Of a stretch of 9,037 nucleotides of DNA, positions 395-8,963 are shown in pieces. The stretch spans positions 1 through 9,037 of the IMG/VR virus record IMGVR_UViG_2778261463_000001. One strand, 5' to 3'. The stretch is from a virus (lineage: Duplodnaviria; Heunggongvirae; Uroviricota; Caudoviricetes). The notes beneath the pieces were generated by a model. The model ran no database searches and was not told where the DNA came from. It saw only the letters and a program-made list of their open reading frames with translations. Each line of letters starts with the position of its first letter. Within the stretch, counting starts at the first letter, position 1. The position numbers and the translations under genes were made by a program.

Positions 395-430
395 AATTTT
401 CTCCATCAAAACCGGCTGCACCCGGGAAAA

Positions 431-1776: not shown

Positions 1777-2328
1777 TCACTCTCCTTTGATGCGAATGCC
1801 AGCGGCGCGCTCAGCTTCATTTTGTTCCCAAAACCACTTGTGAAGCGCCATAAGCTTTTCGTCAATCGGTGCATATTTGCGATTAAAGTAGGCCTGAGCA
1901 TCTTTCTCAGATTCGTCCGGCAATTCGCCTGGGCCAAACAGTGTGTTATAAATCCATGCCAGTCCGCTTTTAGCGTCGCCAGTCGATTGCCATTCGATAA
2001 TGGCAGCCTGCATGACCAGAATGTTTTTCCCGATTAATAGGTCCAGTTCTTTGTACCGGTTGCGGATGTATGCATTCTCGCTTTGTAATTCAGCGTTTCG
2101 CTTCTCTGCTGCTTCCAGCTCATCCAGCAGCGCCAAGACGGTGGCAGGATTGGCGGCGGCTATGAATCGTTTATTGGCGCGATTATCTGGTCCTGAGCAT
2201 GATGCTATGTAGTAATTGGCGTTCAGTCCGGCATCGGCAATTACTCCATGGTAGTCATCAGCACACCATTCGCCTGGTGTTGCATTTTCTGCCGCCAGTC
2301 GCAGAGCCTGATAGTTAATCTCGCTCAC
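1777..2328 (-). CDS. Ead/Ea22-like family protein
   Basis: 183-aa ORF with GTG start at 2328 preceded by AGGAGG (6-nt spacer). GTGA overlap with the upstream stop. Coiled-coil-like acidic protein typical of lambdoid ea22-like early genes (from memory). Confidence 0.6.
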   Translation of the reverse strand: MSEINYQALRLAAENATPGEWCADDYHGVIADAGLNANYYIASCSGPDNRANKRFIAAANPATVLALLDELEAAEKRNAELQSENAYIRNRYKELDLLIGKNILVMQAAIIEWQSTGDAKSGLAWIYNTLFGPGELPDESEKDAQAYFNRKYAPIDEKLMALHKWFWEQNEAERAAGIRIKGE

Positions 2329-2760: not shown

Positions 2761-3119
2761 TTCTTATTCTCCGGTGCTTTCGGCATTACTGCCCAGTGAG
2801 TGATATTGACGTTTTCAAGGTCCCCGACCTGAAATGTCCACTGCCATTCTCCGGTTTCTTTTTGTCCCCAGGTGTACCAGAGAGAACGCCAGCCAATTAG
2901 CCAGCCTTCTCCGTTAGCATCAAATAACAGAACACTTTCATTTGCTGGTGGCAGTTCAGCTGACACTGGTATTATTTTGTTTTCCAGTGCCGTACATTTA
3001 GCTTCAAGCGCATCGAATTTACGTACCAGGTACTCAGCATTTGTTTCGTTCACTTTCAGATCTCGCGGTATACATTTCCCGCGAAGAAACCCTTCCATTT
3101 CGAAAACATTCATGCGCAT
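2757..3119 (-). CDS. yfdS: YfdS-like prophage protein (120 aa) with DUF551-like C-terminus
   Basis: 120-aa ORF directly downstream of the yfdR-like gene. Length matches E. coli K-12 YfdS as I recall it. C-terminus ITHWAVMPKAPE resembles the DUF551 signature. Confidence 0.55.
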   Translation of the reverse strand: MRMNVFEMEGFLRGKCIPRDLKVNETNAEYLVRKFDALEAKCTALENKIIPVSAELPPANESVLLFDANGEGWLIGWRSLWYTWGQKETGEWQWTFQVGDLENVNITHWAVMPKAPENKK

Positions 3120-3646
3120 TTGCGTAACTCCGATAAATCGTTAAAACGTTCCATAAACATCCCGTAGGCATGACCCGGTGCCAGTGGAATCACGTTGAAC
3201 ATCTCTGTTGCCGGGATGCCTTCCAGTACAGGCCAGAAAGAGCCATCATCAAGCCCGAGATCGCGGCGTTCGGTTGCCAGCATGATGAGATCGGCATATT
3301 TCACGGGTGTACTCATAACTGGGGGTAACCCGTATTTCTCACGGATTACGGCGTCTATTTTTTCTTCCATCCGTTTATAGTCAGGAAGAAGGCGTTTCAG
3401 TGGTGCGGGAATGTCCTGGCAATACGCTTCTGTTGCATCATGCATTAACGCTTCAAAAGCAAATTCCTGCGGCACCAGCTGGCTGCAAAGAACCGCATGT
3501 TGGGCGACGCTGTAGAAGTGCGAAAGATGACCGGCAAAGCGACAGATATTTGAAAGGGAAACCGCGATATCGTTAATATCGATGTCGTCTTTATTTATCT
3601 TGTCATAATAAAAATGCTTCCCGGAAAAAGTTTTAATAAATGACAT
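3110..3646 (-). CDS. yfdR: HD-domain phosphohydrolase, YfdR-like (178 aa)
   Basis: ORF 3110..3673; ATG at 3646 preceded by GGAGAA gives 178 aa. Metal-binding motifs H-x..-HD-x..-D visible (HAVLCSQ...LMHDATEAYCQDIP). Length and context match K-12 YfdR. Confidence 0.7.
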   Translation of the reverse strand: MSFIKTFSGKHFYYDKINKDDIDINDIAVSLSNICRFAGHLSHFYSVAQHAVLCSQLVPQEFAFEALMHDATEAYCQDIPAPLKRLLPDYKRMEEKIDAVIREKYGLPPVMSTPVKYADLIMLATERRDLGLDDGSFWPVLEGIPATEMFNVIPLAPGHAYGMFMERFNDLSELRKCA

Positions 3647-3739
3647 TTTGTTCTCCACGTATATGCACTGCACCGCGCTGAATTCTGGTAAAAGGAAGCC
3701 CTCACCATCCGGTGATTATTGAGTTAATTACGTTTCCAT

Positions 3740-3761
3740 AAATGCCCCCGCAGGGGCATTT
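3740..3761 (-). promoter_or_regulatory. Intergenic GC-rich hairpin between the yfdQ-like and yfdR-like genes (9-bp perfect stem, 4-nt loop)
   Basis: AAATGCCCC-cgca-GGGGCATTT. Only 3 T/U follow the stem on either strand, so at most a weak terminator; could be an RNA stability or processing element. Confidence 0.35.
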
Positions 3762-3773
3762 GCAGTAATGAAA

Positions 3774-4598
3774 TCAGGCGGTGAAAGTACCAATAAAGGT
3801 TTCTACTTTGCTGTCTTTGAATTTCTCAACAAGCAGATCACGAAATTCGTTAGCCATTTCTTCCTGCACCGCTTCCAGCTGAATAATGCGCAGAACCAGT
3901 ACAGGACGATCGCCAGTGATAATGCTGAGGCGTAATTTAAACGGACGTTCTTTCAGACCTTCAAACGGAACGCATTTAAATTCAAATGCCACTGGCATAA
4001 TGTCTTTGGTCTTCGCTTCGACAGACTCCATCAGGGAGCGTTTGCCGCTGAAGTCATTATCTTCAAAATCAGCGGTCTGGTTTGCTTCAATCGTGATTTT
4101 ACGGACTGCCGCAGCCGCTTTTGTTGCTTGAATGGCGTCACCATTAGCATCAAAGCCCACAAGGTAGTCGGCCCAGTCTTCGATCCATTCTGCCAGTGAC
4201 TTCTGGGAGTTACGCTCGCCGTTAACAGACAACAGAGCAGAGAACGGTGCTGTCTTTTTCAGTTTGAGAGTGGCAGTGTTATCTGCGTGACCTGGCTCAT
4301 CAATAGTACCCAGGTTAAGCACACTGACGGCACGCATATTATCGGCATCGATAAAGCAGCGGGTGCCTTCATCTGCAAGATCTTTAGAATAACGGGTAAA
4401 ATCATCGATGCTGGCAGTGGAAAGTGCACCACGGAAACGGAAGCGATTTAAATTAAATTTTTCCAGATCATGAATGCGGAAATTCTCAGGCAATGCCACA
4501 GCATCGGCACCAATCTTACTGATAATTTCATTAACACCCTGAGCAGAAATAAGGGCATGGATTTGATTAATTGCGGTTGCGTCTAAGTTCTGAGACAT
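3774..4598 (-). CDS. yfdQ: YfdQ-like protein (DUF2303 family), 274 aa
   Basis: 274-aa ORF between the yfdP-like and yfdR-like genes. Length and gene order match the K-12 CPS-53 yfdP-yfdQ-yfdR-yfdS block (from memory). Confidence 0.65.
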
Positions 4599-4663
4599 AA
4601 TAAGTCCTCACTATATAAAGATATTCAGTGATGAGATAAATAATCAGTTTATTACGAACGATA

Positions 4664-5026
4664 TTAACGACCTGCTGCGCGGAGTTTTCCGTCAGGTTCA
4701 CCGGCAAGAGTCAGTAATTGTCCCTGGTCTTCCTGCAGAATAGTCAGGCGACCACCGCGATTGACATACATCGGCGTTTCGGTGGTGTCTTCTTCGGAAA
4801 TTTTCCCGCGGTTAGTCGGGCGAATATAAGAGAGTTTGTGTTTGATTTTCACACGGTTCTCATCAAATGGTTCGATTTCCAGGTTGAGTGAGACCTTACC
4901 TTTGGTTTTCGTGTTCATCACACCGGAAGCGACTTCACTGAGAACAGCGCCGATTTTGGTTTCAAATACGCCGCCGTCCAGCTCCCCGATAAATGCCTGC
5001 ACATCAGTACTGCGTTCGCTAGCCAT
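4664..5026 (-). CDS. yfdP: YfdP-like protein (120 aa), first gene of the pL operon
   Basis: ATG at 5026 preceded by GAGGAG (7-nt spacer) gives 120 aa (MASERSTDVQ...). The six-frame extension to a TTG at 5212 runs through a 15-bp perfect inverted repeat and lacks an RBS, so is judged non-coding. Confidence 0.6.
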   Translation of the reverse strand: MASERSTDVQAFIGELDGGVFETKIGAVLSEVASGVMNTKTKGKVSLNLEIEPFDENRVKIKHKLSYIRPTNRGKISEEDTTETPMYVNRGGRLTILQEDQGQLLTLAGEPDGKLRAAGR

Positions 5027-5074
5027 TTTGCTGCTCCTCATCATATCGACCCTGTAAGGTCGGTTGGTTTCTCC

Positions 5075-5163
5075 ACAAAACAGAGAAGAACACCTGCGGT
5101 GGCAGCCGCCCGGATGGATTGGGTTATGAGCCCGTCGTCCGGTGATGCTCTTCTCTGTTTTGT
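5075..5163 (-). repeat. 15-bp perfect inverted repeat (ACAAAACAGAGAAGA / TCTTCTCTGTTTTGT) enclosing 59 bp, in the 5' leader of the yfdP-like gene
   Basis: Arms at 5075-5089 and 5149-5163 are exact reverse complements. Expected number of such repeats by chance in 9 kb is about 0.001. Function (RNA stem, processing site or protein site) is inferred, not shown. Confidence 0.6.
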
Positions 5164-5209
5164 AAAAAGAGCGGTACCAGCCGGAAGCAAGTGTACAAAC
5201 TGGTACCGC
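5164..5209 (-). terminator. Terminator-like hairpin on the pL transcript: 10-bp perfect stem, 19-nt loop, then UCUUUUU
   Basis: GCGGTACCAG (5171-5180) and CTGGTACCGC (5200-5209) are exact reverse complements. On the minus strand the stem is followed immediately by a T-rich tract (plus 5164-5170). The loop is long for a classical intrinsic terminator. Confidence 0.35.
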
Positions 5210-5367
5210 CAAAGCAGTGGCTGTTGTGGTGACCGGTGCTGATCTCCGGCTTGCGGTTATTTCAGACTCTCACGGGCGTTTAATTGCCCCGCCGAACAGC
5301 TCTTTTCCGCAATAGCTGCAATGTCTTTCGCGCATCAGCCTGCGCATTCACCACAACTCTAAAAACA

Positions 5368-5437: not shown

Positions 5438-5463
5438 AAAAAAACCGGGGATACCCCGGTTTT
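5438..5463 (-). terminator. Intrinsic terminator downstream of cI (bidirectional architecture)
   Basis: A7-CCGGGG-ATA-CCCCGG-T4 starting 20 nt past the cI stop. On the minus strand the 6-bp GC stem is followed by 7 U. Confidence 0.7.
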
Positions 5464-5483: not shown

Positions 5484-6137
5484 TCAAAAATCCATTATTA
5501 CTTGTTTGACAAGACCAACTATTCTGCAGTTCTCACCGCATTCAATAGTTTTATAGTTAGGATTTAGTGGGACGAGATACCTGTTCGGCCAGTCCTCAAC
5601 AAATTTTTTGAGTGTCGCTTCTTGCCCACCATTGATATGGGCAACAACGATTTTTCCGTTAATACACTCTGTATCAATAATATCTGGCTCTACGATAACG
5701 ATAGAACCTTCTGGTATCGATGGTGAGCCGAGGGGATTGGTCATTGAATCACCACGGACCCGTAGTGCAAATGCCATTTCTGATACAAGGGCGGTAGTAT
5801 AAACCCACTCTTCAGCATCTTCTTTCCTGACACCAGGCTCCGTCATTGTCCATGAACCCGCCTGAACCCACGAGATGAGGGGGACTTTTTTAACTGCGAA
5901 TATTTCAGGTTTTAGATTTATCTTTGGTTCAGGCGAGCCTTTTCCGCTAACAAGCCACAGAGGATCGCATTTAAGTGCGTTGGCTAGGGCTTGAAGGTTG
6001 GCTCCATTTGGTTGGTAGTCGTCCTTTTCCCATCCAGTAACCGTGACACGGTTCACACCAGTCAAATCAGCCAGTGCTTGTTGTGTCAGGTTCAGTTCTT
6101 TTCGCCTTTGGCGAATACGATCACTCATGTTCATCAT
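5484..6137 (-). CDS. cI: CI-type prophage repressor: N-terminal HTH (XRE family) plus C-terminal S24 LexA-like autopeptidase
   Basis: 217-aa ORF. HTH region LTQQALADLTGVNRVTVTGWE. Probable Ala-Gly cleavage site (VQAGSW). Catalytic Ser in RGDSM and downstream Lys (TLKKF). Divergent from cro across an operator region. Confidence 0.85.
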   Translation of the reverse strand: MMNMSDRIRQRRKELNLTQQALADLTGVNRVTVTGWEKDDYQPNGANLQALANALKCDPLWLVSGKGSPEPKINLKPEIFAVKKVPLISWVQAGSWTMTEPGVRKEDAEEWVYTTALVSEMAFALRVRGDSMTNPLGSPSIPEGSIVIVEPDIIDTECINGKIVVAHINGGQEATLKKFVEDWPNRYLVPLNPNYKTIECGENCRIVGLVKQVIMDF

Positions 6138-6232: not shown

Positions 6233-6430
6233 ATGCGGAAATCCGACGTGATTAATTATTTCGGCGGAGTTTGTAAAACCGCCGAAGCCCTAGGTATTAA
6301 GCATCCGTCTGTTTCAGAGTGGCCTGAGATTATTCCTGAAGGCCGAGCGTACCAGTTAGAAAAAATTACTAACGGGAAACTGAAAGTTGACGTGTCTTTA
6401 TATCAAAAGACTAACAGTGCTGCGGCATAA
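6233..6430 (+). CDS. cro: Cro-like small HTH regulator (YdaS-type)
   Basis: 65-aa ORF with GGGAGA 5 nt upstream of the ATG, directly downstream of pR. HTH-like segment CKTAEALGIKHPSVSEW. Confidence 0.75.
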   Translation: MRKSDVINYFGGVCKTAEALGIKHPSVSEWPEIIPEGRAYQLEKITNGKLKVDVSLYQKTNSAAA

Positions 6431-6457: not shown

Positions 6458-7036
6458 GTGGGTAAAGAACCTGAATGGAAAGTTGATAAACAACCAGCAT
6501 GGCTGGTGGCAGCAATACGAAGAACGATTGCTGATTTACCTCATGGCTATGAGGAAGCAGCAGAAATTCTTGGTTTGTATAAATCTGATGATATCACCCC
6601 AGCAAAAGATCAATTGCATAACAGACTGCGTAGCGGTGGGGATCAAATTTTTCCACTTGAGTGGGCCATGGTTTTACAGGATGCCAGTGGTACCAGGCAT
6701 GTAACAGATGCAATAGCCCGTCGTAGTAATGGGGTGTTTGTGCCGCTGGTGGTCATTGATGACATTGACAATGGTGACATTAATCAGCGGCTGATGGAGT
6801 CAATAGAATGGATTGGCAAGCATTCCCAGTACTTACGCAAGGCAACTGCTGATGGAGTTATTGACCTGGCTGAGCGTGAGCAAATCGAAGAGAACAGCTA
6901 CCAAGTAATGGCGAAGTGGCAGGAGCATTTAACACTGTTATTTCGTGTTTTTTGTGCGCCGGAAAAGAGTGACGCCCGCGAGTGTGCAGCTCCGGGCGTC
7001 GTGGCGTTTTGTGTCTGTGGAGAAACTAACGCATGA
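6458..7036 (+). CDS. CII-like regulator (YdaT-type), 192 aa
   Basis: GTG start at 6458 with GAGGA 8 nt upstream. Sits immediately after cro, as in the cI/YdaS/YdaT modules of Rac-like prophages. Family assignment from memory. Confidence 0.6.
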   Translation: MGKEPEWKVDKQPAWLVAAIRRTIADLPHGYEEAAEILGLYKSDDITPAKDQLHNRLRSGGDQIFPLEWAMVLQDASGTRHVTDAIARRSNGVFVPLVVIDDIDNGDINQRLMESIEWIGKHSQYLRKATADGVIDLAEREQIEENSYQVMAKWQEHLTLLFRVFCAPEKSDARECAAPGVVAFCVCGETNA

Positions 7037-8103
7037 ACAGTTTAACGGCAAATAACCGTTGGTCGCAACAGCTGGTGGTCCGCGTGGCTGAACACCTGTT
7101 GTTACGGCATGAATGCAGATTACCAAATCACCTGGCTGTAAGTAACCACAGAGAACTTTACCTGACTGTGGGGGGCGAGTTGTGCAGGAACTTAACCGCT
7201 GGTTTCGTGACGGAAGAGGGCTTTATGTTCATGTTATTCGTTGGGAACCAGAAACACAGCGCGTTATCTATCTTCGCAAAGACTACCCGCATGAGTGCTT
7301 TAGTCCTTTGTGGAAATTCAGGCGTGATTTTGTTGAGTGTGAAGGACCACCAGCACATTGATTCTGCCATTCCGGGACGTTACACTGTTCAGGCACCTTA
7401 TAAAGCGGGTGCCGGGATTGGCGTCCTGAAATTGATTACTGAGCATAACCGCGCTCATGCGGTTTTTTCGTGTCATGAGCATTGCTACGCCCAAATTATG
7501 GTGGGGCGTACAGGGCCGACTTCGGTCGGGCCGGGTTCGGTAGTCTCCGGTAACGCCAACCCTGTACGTCTCACCACCTCTGTGATTGGCGTCCCATGTG
7601 GTGAGTTTTCTAAAAAACTGACTACCGGGGCTGTCACCATGACTACTCTCCCAACCCTCTCTCAACCTGAAATTGCCATCGTTGATGGTCAGGCTGTTAC
7701 ATCTTCTTTGGCTGTTGCTGACTTCTTCTCTAAACGTCATGACGATGTTCTGAAAAAGATCCGCATTTTGGATTGTTCTCCAGAGTTTTGTGCCCGCAAT
7801 TTTGCGGAGACATCAATTTTGGTACGCCAGCCCAACGGCGGTACTCGCAAACTTCCTTGCTACCAAATCACACGCGACGGTTTTGCGTTTCTTGCTATGG
7901 GTTTCACGGGTAAACGTGCTGCCCAGTTCAAAGAGGCATATATCAATGCCTTTAACCAGATGGAGAAACAGCTTTCAAAGCCCGCTGTACCGAGCGACGT
8001 TGCACATAACGCCAGCGTTCTCTGTTCCTACATTTCATCAATTCATCAGGTCTGGCTGCAGCAGCTTTATCCCGAAAGGGAAGGTCGAGATCACTATCAG
8101 TAA
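7033..8103 (+). CDS. Rha-family phage regulatory protein (long form): ~200 N-terminal residues of unknown function fused in frame to a C-terminal pRha domain
   Basis: 356-codon open frame whose ATG overlaps the cII-like stop (ATGA at 7033-7036). Residues from about 7639 match the Rha core (KRHDDVLKKIR, ITRDGFAFLAMGFTGKRAAQFKEAYINAFNQME). Alternative starts at 7498 or 7639 would give 201 or 154 aa. Confidence 0.5.
   Translation: MNSLTANNRWSQQLVVRVAEHLLLRHECRLPNHLAVSNHRELYLTVGGELCRNLTAGFVTEEGFMFMLFVGNQKHSALSIFAKTTRMSALVLCGNSGVILLSVKDHQHIDSAIPGRYTVQAPYKAGAGIGVLKLITEHNRAHAVFSCHEHCYAQIMVGRTGPTSVGPGSVVSGNANPVRLTTSVIGVPCGEFSKKLTTGAVTMTTLPTLSQPEIAIVDGQAVTSSLAVADFFSKRHDDVLKKIRILDCSPEFCARNFAETSILVRQPNGGTRKLPCYQITRDGFAFLAMGFTGKRAAQFKEAYINAFNQMEKQLSKPAVPSDVAHNASVLCSYISSIHQVWLQQLYPEREGRDHYQ
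7447..7468 (+). terminator. Terminator-like hairpin (AACCGC-gctcat-GCGGTT followed by a T-run) inside the long ORF
   Basis: 6-bp stem with 6-nt loop; six consecutive T at 7463-7468. Weak stem, and it lies inside an open reading frame, so it may be fortuitous. Confidence 0.25.
7499..7576 (+). other. Strand-specific RNA stem-loop element: 17-bp closing stem with two G-U pairs enclosing a CCGAC-UUCG-GUCGG tetraloop hairpin
   Basis: 7499-7515 pairs with 7560-7576 (15 Watson-Crick plus 2 G-T pairs, so it folds only as plus-strand RNA). Inner hairpin 7516-7529. Tandem imperfect 15-nt repeat GGGCCGACTTCGGTC / GGGCCGGGTTCGGTA. Confidence 0.4.
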
Positions 8104-8153
8104 GTATGAGAAACCGGCGGGTGCAGCCGCCTGATTAAGAGGAGAAACGAAGT

Positions 8154-8963
8154 ATGAATAATCTGATAGTTATTGATGGTATTGAAGTTCGTCGTGATGC
8201 TTATGGGCGTTACAGCCTGAACGATCTGCACAGGGCAGCCGGGGGAGAACAAAAAAACCGCCCGAAATACTGGCTCTCCAATAAGCAAACCTGTGAATTG
8301 ATTGAACAACTTTTCACCGAGGGTGAAATTCCGCCTCTGGAACAAAATCAACCAGTTAGCGTCATTAATGGCGGAAATAACCAGGGGACGTATGTCTGCA
8401 AAGAACTGGTGTATGCCTATGCAATGTGGATCAGCCCGTCATTCCATCTGAAGGTGATCCGTACTTTCGATATGGTAACCAGCGCACCGGAAAAATTATC
8501 CGGGCAGGCTGCTGACAAGATGCAGGCTGGTGTGATTCTGCTGGACTTTATGCGCCGGGAGTTAAACCTGTCTAACTCTTCAGTGCTTGGTGCCTGTCAG
8601 AAACTCCAGGAGGCTGTTGGCTTACCGAATCTGGCACCGCGCTATGCCATTGATGCTCCTGCTGACGCGCCTGATGGCTCAAGTCGCCCTACGCTGTCGC
8701 TGAGTGCACTGCTGAAACAGTATGGTATCCGCCTTACGGCTAATCAGGCATATCACCAGATGGCGAAGCTGGGGATCGTTGAACAACGCGAACGATACAG
8801 CCGTACCACGATTAACAACATCAAAAAATTCTGGTCGCTGACAGCGAAAGGTTGCATGTTCGGCAAGAACATCACCAGTCCCGCAAATCCGCGCGAGACG
8901 CAGCCGCATTTCTTCGAATCCCGATTCCCTGAGCTGTTAAAGTTGCTCGATACCGTTCATTGA
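8154..8963 (+). CDS. KilA-N domain protein (putative antirepressor or host-interference protein), 269 aa
   Basis: AGGAG 9 nt upstream of the ATG. N-terminal KilA-N hallmarks: VIDGIEVRRDAYGRYSLNDLHRAAGGE...NRPKYWL and ELVYAYAMWISPSFHLKVIRTFD. Confidence 0.75.
   Translation: MNNLIVIDGIEVRRDAYGRYSLNDLHRAAGGEQKNRPKYWLSNKQTCELIEQLFTEGEIPPLEQNQPVSVINGGNNQGTYVCKELVYAYAMWISPSFHLKVIRTFDMVTSAPEKLSGQAADKMQAGVILLDFMRRELNLSNSSVLGACQKLQEAVGLPNLAPRYAIDAPADAPDGSSRPTLSLSALLKQYGIRLTANQAYHQMAKLGIVEQRERYSRTTINNIKKFWSLTAKGCMFGKNITSPANPRETQPHFFESRFPELLKLLDTVH

Follow-up and report, generated by a model that had tools for sequence, protein, structure and literature searches.

The 9,037-nt stretch of phage DNA analysed here, called the window below, corresponds to the immunity and early region of an SfV/CPS-53-type lambdoid prophage, and its genes and elements are collected in Table 1. 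The leftward operon runs from a yfdP-like gene through yfdQ, an intergenic gap, yfdR and a yfdS-like gene (DUF551) on to Ead/Ea22, and RefSeq labels the gene downstream of the gap yfdR in identical E. coli loci. The hairpin that is the subject of this work, H1, lies in this gap, about 1.6 kb downstream of the PL-like promoter. An identical H1 is found in the CPS-53 prophage of E. coli K-12 (2474867-2474888). The 701 bases around the gap are present in 3001 of 5426 complete E. coli genomes and in 71 phage records, including SfV, SfIV, Stx2c phages and the cdtI phage. YfdR binds DnaA, and overexpression of yfdQRST inhibits the initiation of chromosomal replication (PMC4776307). The papers that mention yfdQ, yfdR or DUF2303 say nothing of the yfdQ-yfdR intergenic region, and the Pas sRNA preprint is concerned with sRNAs of the late region.

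Table 1. Genes, signals and RNA elements of the window (positions in nucleotides of the window)
Feature	Position	Strand	Description and basis
KKGCAG hairpin	412-425	-	CCGG-GUGCAG-CCGG, then UUUUGAUGGAGAAAAUUAUG; motif scan
YfdR-like HD-domain 5'-deoxynucleotidase	3110-3646	-	178 aa; downstream cistron; phrog_318, E = 5e-110
yfdR-like Shine-Dalgarno and start codon	3644..3656	-	GGAGAA 3656-3651, ATG 3646-3644; GGAGAA conserved in alignment
yfdQ/yfdR intergenic gap	3647-3773	-	127 nt
H3, start-associated hairpin	3663..3678	-	GCGCG-GUGCAG-UGCAU; alignment
H2	3699..3715	-	UCACC-GGAU-GGUGA 3702-3715, then invariant GGG; alignment
AU-rich single-stranded linker	3716..3725	-	AACUCAAUAA, consensus UUAAUUAU; between the long hairpin and H2; alignment
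Extended irregular hairpin	3726..3776	-	Lower stem plus H1, about 50 nt; inverted repeat, 22-nt arms 73% complementary
H1 core	3740..3761	-	5' arm AAAUGCCCC 3761-3753, loop UGCG 3752-3749, 3' arm GGGGCAUUU 3748-3740
yfdQ-like stop codon	3776-3774	-	UGA; sequence
YfdQ-like DUF2303 protein	3774-4598	-	274 aa; upstream cistron; Pfam PF10065, E = 2e-92; phrog_210
yfdP-like gene	4664-5026	-	Leftward operon
PL-like promoter	5397-5368	-	TTGACA, 18 nt, TACATT; left of cI, with operator-like inverted repeats
cI-like repressor	5484-6137	-	Profile match
P22-Cro-like gene	6233-6430	+	Profile match
CII-like gene	6458-7036	+	Profile match
Ash/Rha gene	7033-8103	+	Profile match
KKGCAG hairpin	8116-8131	+	GGCGG-GUGCAG-CCGCC, then UGAUUAAGAGGAGAAACGAAGUAUG; just ahead of KilA-N gene; motif scan
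KilA-N gene	8154-8963	+	Profile match

Other structured elements accompany these genes. Straight after PL, a possible 25-codon ORF (5270-5347, minus strand) would encode MRRLMRERHCSYCGKELFGGAIKRP, an arginine-rich peptide with a CxxC motif; its ribosome-binding site is weak and the ORF is putative only. Further into the leader, about 150-190 nt past the promoter and ahead of the operon's first recognised gene, the minus strand carries a terminator-like hairpin (5164-5209) consisting of GCGGUACCAG, 19 nt, CUGGUACCGC and then UCUUUUU. In the 65-nt gap between yfdP and yfdQ (4599-4663, minus strand), UCACU can pair with AGUGA across 14 nt. This pairing overlaps the yfdQ ribosome-binding site GUGAGGA and may, to judge from the bases involved, be a translational control structure. 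On the plus strand, Rfam models score above their gathering thresholds for isrK (7393-7469, 59 bits) and C4 antisense RNA (7494-7581, 82 bits), and an a1/b1 target is weakly matched at 7380-7432. All three matches fall within ORF 7033-8103, a long frame that is Ash/Rha-like in its C-terminal part. Positions 7380-7581 constitute a c4/ant immunity module of the P1 type, and in its 5' part the ORF as called is probably no genuine gene. The gap RNA was considered as a target of the C4/IsrK RNAs (7393-7581) and rejected, its duplex energies with them being no better than those of shuffled sequences.

A perfect hairpin downstream of yfdQ

Read on the plus strand, H1 is composed of AAATGCCCC (3740-3748), a CGCA loop (3749-3752) and GGGGCATTT (3753-3761). 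Its stem holds nine perfect pairs, five of them G-C, and on the minus strand it begins 12 nt past the yfdQ-like stop codon. The sequence-only reading, made from the letters of the window without database searches, had described exactly this hairpin in a 127-bp gap, and both the sequence and the length of the gap, which is flanked by two minus-strand genes, are as it claimed. It had further remarked on the want of a proper U-tract, in agreement with the tail directly 3' of H1 on the transcribed minus strand, AUGGAAAC. The computed free energy of H1 alone is -15.0 kcal/mol, and in the ensemble of a 161-nt context its pairs have probabilities of 0.5-1.0, the G-C core reaching 1.0.

The window contains two perfect hairpins with stems of 9 bp or more and loops of 3-8 nt, namely H1 and the terminator that follows cI (5441-5463), and H1 is the sole strong hairpin within the leftward operon. 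Dinucleotide shuffles of the 9-kb window yield 0.20 such hairpins per shuffle and at least one in 16% of shuffles. That frequency is what speaks for a chance palindrome devoid of function, but the expectation for the 127-nt gap itself is roughly 0.003. Sequence alone is only suggestive here; H1 is not a product of chance because it is conserved in homologues.

Conservation and covariation of the stem

Homologous loci were anchored on YfdQ and taken from IMG/VR and from one genome per species. The alignment covers the 140 nt after the stop codon in 51 distinct regions with YfdQ identities of 55-100%, and RNAalifold applied to it recovers H1. Each of the nine core pairs is a standard pair in all 51 sequences, without a single broken cell. 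Compensatory changes are present at four of the pairs (A-U/U-A in 13 sequences, G-C/C-G in six, C-G/G-C in six and U-A/A-U in two), and about 25 G·U or U·G cells are spread over five pair positions. None of 500 shuffles matched the observed pairing and covariation values, so that the chance palindrome is in practice refuted and we regard it as scarcely credible. The sequence-only reading had proposed conservation in homologous prophages as a check and an unconserved stem as part of a refutation; the stem is in fact kept, with compensatory changes, across Enterobacterales prophages, and on this point the refutation clearly fails.

The same alignment identifies the strand. The A·C cells expected had the opposite strand been selected are entirely absent from the 51 sequences, and because the G·U cells can pair only on the minus strand, H1 is an RNA structure of the sense transcript. 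With a covariance model derived from these sequences, the minus strand scores 124 bits and the plus strand 29 bits. A function of the antisense strand is ruled out by the G·U pattern, by these model scores and by a negative antisense terminator score.

Among 82 E. coli-type copies, H1 is identical in 78; its G-C core shows three changes, each of them from C to U and each keeping a wobble pair. The loop varies in both sequence and length (3-8 nt), and a generic stable hairpin is therefore more likely than a loop-specific protein site. More distant relatives carry unrelated stems at the same place: UCGGUGCUUAG in Hafnia, with GCACCGA/UCGGUGC in Hafnia phage yong2, GUGGCAUUUGU with AUGCCAC/GUGGCAU in Proteus, GCGUCG/CGGCGC in Xenorhabdus, and GCGGCAUUUUUAU in Morganella, where UGCCGC/GCGGCA is followed by UUUUUAU, a canonical U-tract. 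A G-C core followed by U-rich bases is encountered at this place in every enterobacterial lineage. Outside this group, at four Pseudomonas/Marinobacter loci (L156, L165-L167), a G-C hairpin likewise comes after a distant DUF2303 gene (about 43% identity). These hairpins have no U-tail, share CCUACCAC or CUUACCAC in or beside the loop, and may be an unrelated conserved element.

A role at the DNA level, in which the palindrome would be a protein-binding site, a cruciform or a recombination hotspot marking a module junction, draws on the position of mosaic joints. In SfII (locus L005, about 1840-1875, minus strand) another module takes the place of the upstream one as far as the loop, the joint falling inside the hairpin, and in an IMG/VR contig (L071, about 2335-2360) the downstream module is replaced directly past the 3' arm of H1. 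Joints at conserved intergenic sequence are, however, to be expected whatever the RNA does. Against such a role also stand the tolerance of G·U on one strand only with zero A·C cells, the free change of stem sequence between lineages with pairing kept, and the variable loop. We hold it to be very improbable. Two IS1 insertions, in NZ_OZ547117.1 (L007) and NZ_CP097198.1, split yfdQ and leave the hairpin intact; both lie within the gene and are ruled out as events at the hairpin.

A longer irregular stem below H1

H1 forms the upper part of a longer irregular hairpin, which the sequence-only reading missed while describing the core correctly. The 5' strand of the lower stem includes the yfdQ stop codon, and its 3' strand is made up of AUGGAAACGUAAUU, a conserved segment with the consensus AGUGAAGCGUAAUU. 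In the 51 sequences this stem is 82% paired, versus about 45% in slid controls, and eight of its 11 pairs show double-sided changes. In relatives the extended hairpin reaches -19 to -26 kcal/mol. In the fold of the window the lower stem adds about -2.5 kcal/mol, for a total of -17.5, and the structure is one among a number of co-optimal folds. In cassettes that lack yfdQ another lower stem, CGUUU/AAACG, flanks the equivalent hairpin.

The lower stem draws on sequence 3' of any point at which transcription could terminate; it can therefore have an effect only where polymerase has read through, a hint of a function in processing or regulation. In H1, the A-U to U-A exchange at alignment columns 21/42, in 13 sequences, costs the tail a U, and it is accordingly the pairing and not U-richness that is selected. 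Both observations tell against a simple terminator.

These properties invite comparison with an RNase III-type signal, a hairpin of about 50 nt (roughly 17-20 bp with mismatches) that would be cut in read-through RNA and so separate the yfdQ and yfdR messages and set their stabilities. The degree of pairing and two-sided change in the lower stem, its replacement by a different stem in yfdQ-less cassettes, the selection on pairing over U content and the stability of the extended stems in relatives all agree with it. Sites of this enzyme span some two turns of helix, around 20 bp of RNA that is largely double-stranded, whereas the helix here is short and interrupted next to a classical substrate and its extension in the window is marginal, with several folds co-optimal. 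In relatives whose gap is very short the lower stem is reduced or absent, and among the RNase III sites listed for K-12 (Gordon 2017) none falls in the gap (2474857-2474983), a low-count site being located at 2475058 inside yfdR. We consider an RNase III-type signal unlikely.

A terminator-like element inside the early operon

H1 has the stem of an intrinsic terminator, G-C-rich and located on the sense strand downstream of yfdQ. Intrinsic terminators typically have at least five U in the 8 nt just 3' of the stem, and the tail after the G-C core, AUUUAUGG, has four. A consensus terminator scan of the window did not call the H1 site. With a d'Aubenton-Carafa-type score, H1 obtains a marginal +7.8 at best in the sense direction and -8.4 in the antisense direction, far short of the +39 reached by this phage's own cI terminator. 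This post-cI hairpin (5441-5463, minus strand) is a perfect 10-bp stem, AAAACCGGGG-UAU-CCCCGGUUUU, followed by UUUAUG, and the SfII record marks a putative rho-independent terminator at the same place. The record of phage Ayreon carries a 'terminator' feature at exactly the H1 spot.

Whatever termination H1 brings about cannot be complete. A scan of the minus strand of the gap (3647-3773) for sigma-70 promoters, with -35/-10 hexamers 16-18 nt apart, found none, and on manual inspection -35/-10 spacers in the conserved AU-rich segment come to no more than 11-14 nt. The next gene in the Proteus and Xenorhabdus relatives begins a mere 25 nt or so past the hairpin. Given a gap without promoter and downstream genes that follow so closely, H1 is not a full stop and must be leaky or overridden, the downstream genes depending on read-through. 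The K-12 Term-seq tables (Adams 2021, TERMITe) hold no entry for a 3' end at yfdQ/yfdR, and CPS-53 is nearly silent there; because the prophage is barely transcribed in K-12, the missing 3' end is weak evidence, and the lack of a listed RNase III site in the gap likewise says little.

H1 is an intercistronic terminator-like stem-loop of a phage early operon, of an ordinary kind. The reading that we favour, with a probability only a little short of even, is that it acts as a leaky terminator and/or as a 3'-protective stem-loop, lowering distal relative to proximal expression. H1 would fold in the polycistronic PL transcript once RNA polymerase has passed the yfdQ stop codon, and a fraction of polymerases would stop at the weak U-rich tail AUUUAU, as at a leaky intrinsic terminator. 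In transcripts that end at H1, whether by termination or by cleavage in the AU-rich linker, the G-C core would block 3' exonucleases. The linker itself might conceivably be an RNase E-type cleavage site. Read-through RNA would continue via H2 and H3 as the 5' leader of the next cistron, and the outcome would be an excess of yfdP/yfdQ mRNA over that of yfdR, yfdS and the distal genes as far as xis and int. From the structure and its surroundings we infer termination, stabilisation and an effect of H1 on the expression ratio. Protection could not be at stake everywhere: in the PL-leader cassettes described below, which have no upstream gene, there is no upstream message to protect.

The sequence-only reading had proposed a partial terminator or RNA processing element setting the yfdP/Q to yfdR/S expression ratio. 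What stands of this proposal is a conserved structure of the sense RNA that fits an element able to set such a ratio. As far as the bases can tell, a partial terminator would fit the marginal score, the Ayreon annotation and the promoterless downstream genes, and a processing element would fit the covarying lower stem. In either form H1 is a routine operon feature that probably sets the share of the early leftward transcript reaching yfdR and beyond. The module being present in more than half of complete E. coli genomes, this would make it a very common prophage control point.

A mobile cassette of three hairpins

H1 is followed in the gap by two further hairpins, H2 and H3. Together the three form a cassette that, like its occurrence without yfdQ and without yfdR, had escaped the sequence-only reading. 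H2 is 93% paired in the alignment, where two of its pairs covary (C-G/U-A and G-C/A-U) and G·U cells occur; in the window's own ensemble it is weak (p about 0.16). All six stem pairs of H3 covary, in variants such as GCGCG/CGCGC, CGCAG/CUGCG, GCGCU/AGCGC and GCGCCA/UGGCGC, around a nearly invariant hexaloop GUGCAG, and the hairpin ends 4-14 nt ahead of the Shine-Dalgarno sequence GGAGAA. The window itself has a degraded H3 stem, in which U 3667 and A 3664 produce UGCAU in place of CGCGY, and the pair probability is about 0; K-12 and most relatives have GCGC on this 3' side.

H1, H2 and H3 move together, independently of the flanking genes. Many loci have YfdQ upstream of the cassette and an unrelated gene downstream. 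In SfII the upstream gene is unrelated and similarity to the window starts in the H1 loop. When IMG/VR was scanned for the H2 core, at least 120 contigs came up. In roughly 45-50 of these the cassette has no YfdQ upstream and resides in a long non-coding PL leader, as in L170, 470-620 nt past the promoter and ahead of an unknown gene and a ParB-like gene. The covariance model scores 52-91 bits in such other contexts. ST64B and the window contain one cassette each, and a second copy, as in a nutL/nutR-like arrangement, was found in neither. Proteus, Xenorhabdus and Hafnia relatives keep H1 without H2 and H3, from which it follows that H1 can stand alone.

The Rfam 15 covariance models give only chance-level matches in the gap (10-15 bits, E up to 10) and in the second cassette context, L170; a weak 'uup' match on H3 was discarded, as the flanks alone produce it. 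The intergenic regions of these early operons hold conserved, clearly covarying RNA structures that are absent from Rfam. Two additional pairings were considered within the cassette. CGUAAUU with GGGAUUCG, which would form a switch, is 80% paired with almost no covariation, and a GGG/CCC mini-helix after H2 comes down to two invariant G-C pairs.

The distribution of the cassette raises the question of whether H1 serves yfdQ at all. It could instead be the terminator-like arm of an H1-H2-H3 cis-regulatory leader RNA for the downstream cistron, read by a phage or host factor, for instance an antiterminator or a translational regulator binding the conserved loops. We think this as unlikely as the RNase III-type signal. 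The module is shared by unrelated contexts (after yfdQ, before yfdR but after an unrelated gene in SfII, and in yfdQ-less PL leaders), the model still scores 52-91 bits there, the GGG after H2 is invariant and the H3 loop nearly so, KKGCAG hairpins recur ahead of many ribosome-binding sites, and boxA-like UGCUCUUUU stands beside such a hairpin in some PL leaders. Yet a single cassette per phage makes no nutL/nutR-like pair, no N-like gene was recognised, and the switch-type alternative pairings have little covariation; in addition, H2 and H3 are absent from the three lineages that keep H1, and H3 is degraded in the window itself.

A wider claim can be framed around the gap as a whole, as one copy of an undescribed mobile structured RNA cassette whose hairpins are read by a factor, H1 being its regulated terminator or processing arm. 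The cassette would then control translation, processing or antitermination of early genes, and H3 would belong to a widespread class. Taken jointly, this is possible but doubtful in our estimation. If true, a factor reading the cassette or the hexaloop hairpins would add a new layer of early-gene control in lambdoid phages. The cassette and the KKGCAG start-associated hairpins are in any case more unusual than H1.

Start-associated KKGCAG hairpins

H3 exemplifies a motif made of a G-C-rich stem of 4-8 bp and variable sequence, a KKGCAG hexaloop (mostly GUGCAG or UUGCAG), a spacing of 2-9 nt, GGAGA(A) and a start codon. The window has three strict matches versus 0.30 expected, all on the sense strand at intercistronic junctions, and ST64B has one such hairpin ahead of xis (L168, 22453-22470, minus strand). 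A census of 203 loci (1.47 Mb) with 40 permuted-loop controls counted 241 distinct contexts versus a control mean of 31 (maximum 68). Hairpins followed by a Shine-Dalgarno sequence and a start codon numbered 130, versus a control mean of 1.1 (maximum 14). The hairpins precede many unrelated early genes, and the motif is absent from Rfam. Sequence reading also finds the boxA-like UGCUCUUUU adjoining a KKGCAG hairpin in some PL leaders.

Further relatives of the motif are present in the window. Ahead of the yfdP-like gene (5047-5062, minus strand) is a copy with a mutated loop, UUACAG. In the PL leader (5096-5109), GCGG-UGGCAG-CCGC is found on the plus strand, antisense to the PL transcript, the sense loop being CUGCCA. 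Relatives, among them L264, L094 and L105, have the same GCGG/CCGC stem with UUGCAG on the sense strand, followed by boxA-like AGGUGCUCUUUUG, and by its sequence the hairpin at 5096-5109 looks inverted.

Comparison with known systems

The boxB elements of λ and P22 nut sites consist of a small stem with a GNRNA pentaloop, two per phage. H3-type hairpins resemble them in their five-bp G-C stem and small purine-rich loop, and the stem variant GCGCU/AGCGC is the same as what we take to be the stem of P22 boxB. They differ in having a hexaloop instead of a pentaloop, with a first loop base that varies, and in occurring in many copies per operon ahead of ribosome-binding sites, no N protein having been found. 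The organisation of a nut system, with a site in each early operon, boxA upstream of boxB and an N gene, is not seen in the window or ST64B, and profile searches recognised no N-like family among the operon genes.

The closest described analogue of the H3-type hairpins known to us is found in Cluster K mycobacteriophages, whose start-associated sequences (SAS) and extended SAS inverted repeats are positioned just upstream of translation starts with a presumed role in initiation (PMC3203893). In both cases a short conserved motif, partly in the form of inverted repeats, precedes the starts of numerous unrelated genes within one phage group. The two differ in hosts, sequences and architecture and have no sequence relation: the motif described here has a variable stem of 4-8 bp and a KKGCAG hexaloop placed 2-9 nt ahead of GGAGA(A).

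For H1 itself, three known kinds of element offer a comparison. RNase III processing hairpins are exemplified by the intercistronic sites of phage T7 (R1.1 and others) and by λ sib. Like them, the extended H1 lies between cistrons of a polycistronic phage mRNA and is irregular, about 50 nt long, with a perfect upper stem, internal mismatches and a lower stem, and a stable hairpin would stay at the 3' end of the upstream message. Its helix is, however, shorter and less regular, and the lower part is thermodynamically marginal in the window.

Internal terminators of the λ PL operon, of the tL1 type, are read through after antitermination. Compared with these, the U-tract of H1 is much weaker, and neither an N-like antiterminator nor a pair of nut sites was identified in this phage type. 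The two nevertheless have in common a G-C-rich sense stem-loop inside a lambdoid early leftward operon, which divides promoter-proximal from distal genes, the latter having no promoter of their own.

Intercistronic stabilisers include the REP elements in malE-malF and the hairpins of the puf operon. H1 is no dispersed repeat as REP is, its sequence being specific to the yfdQ junction. It does share with these stabilisers a stable hairpin directly after a cistron, which would protect the upstream message from 3' exonucleases irrespective of loop sequence and would give higher upstream than downstream expression.
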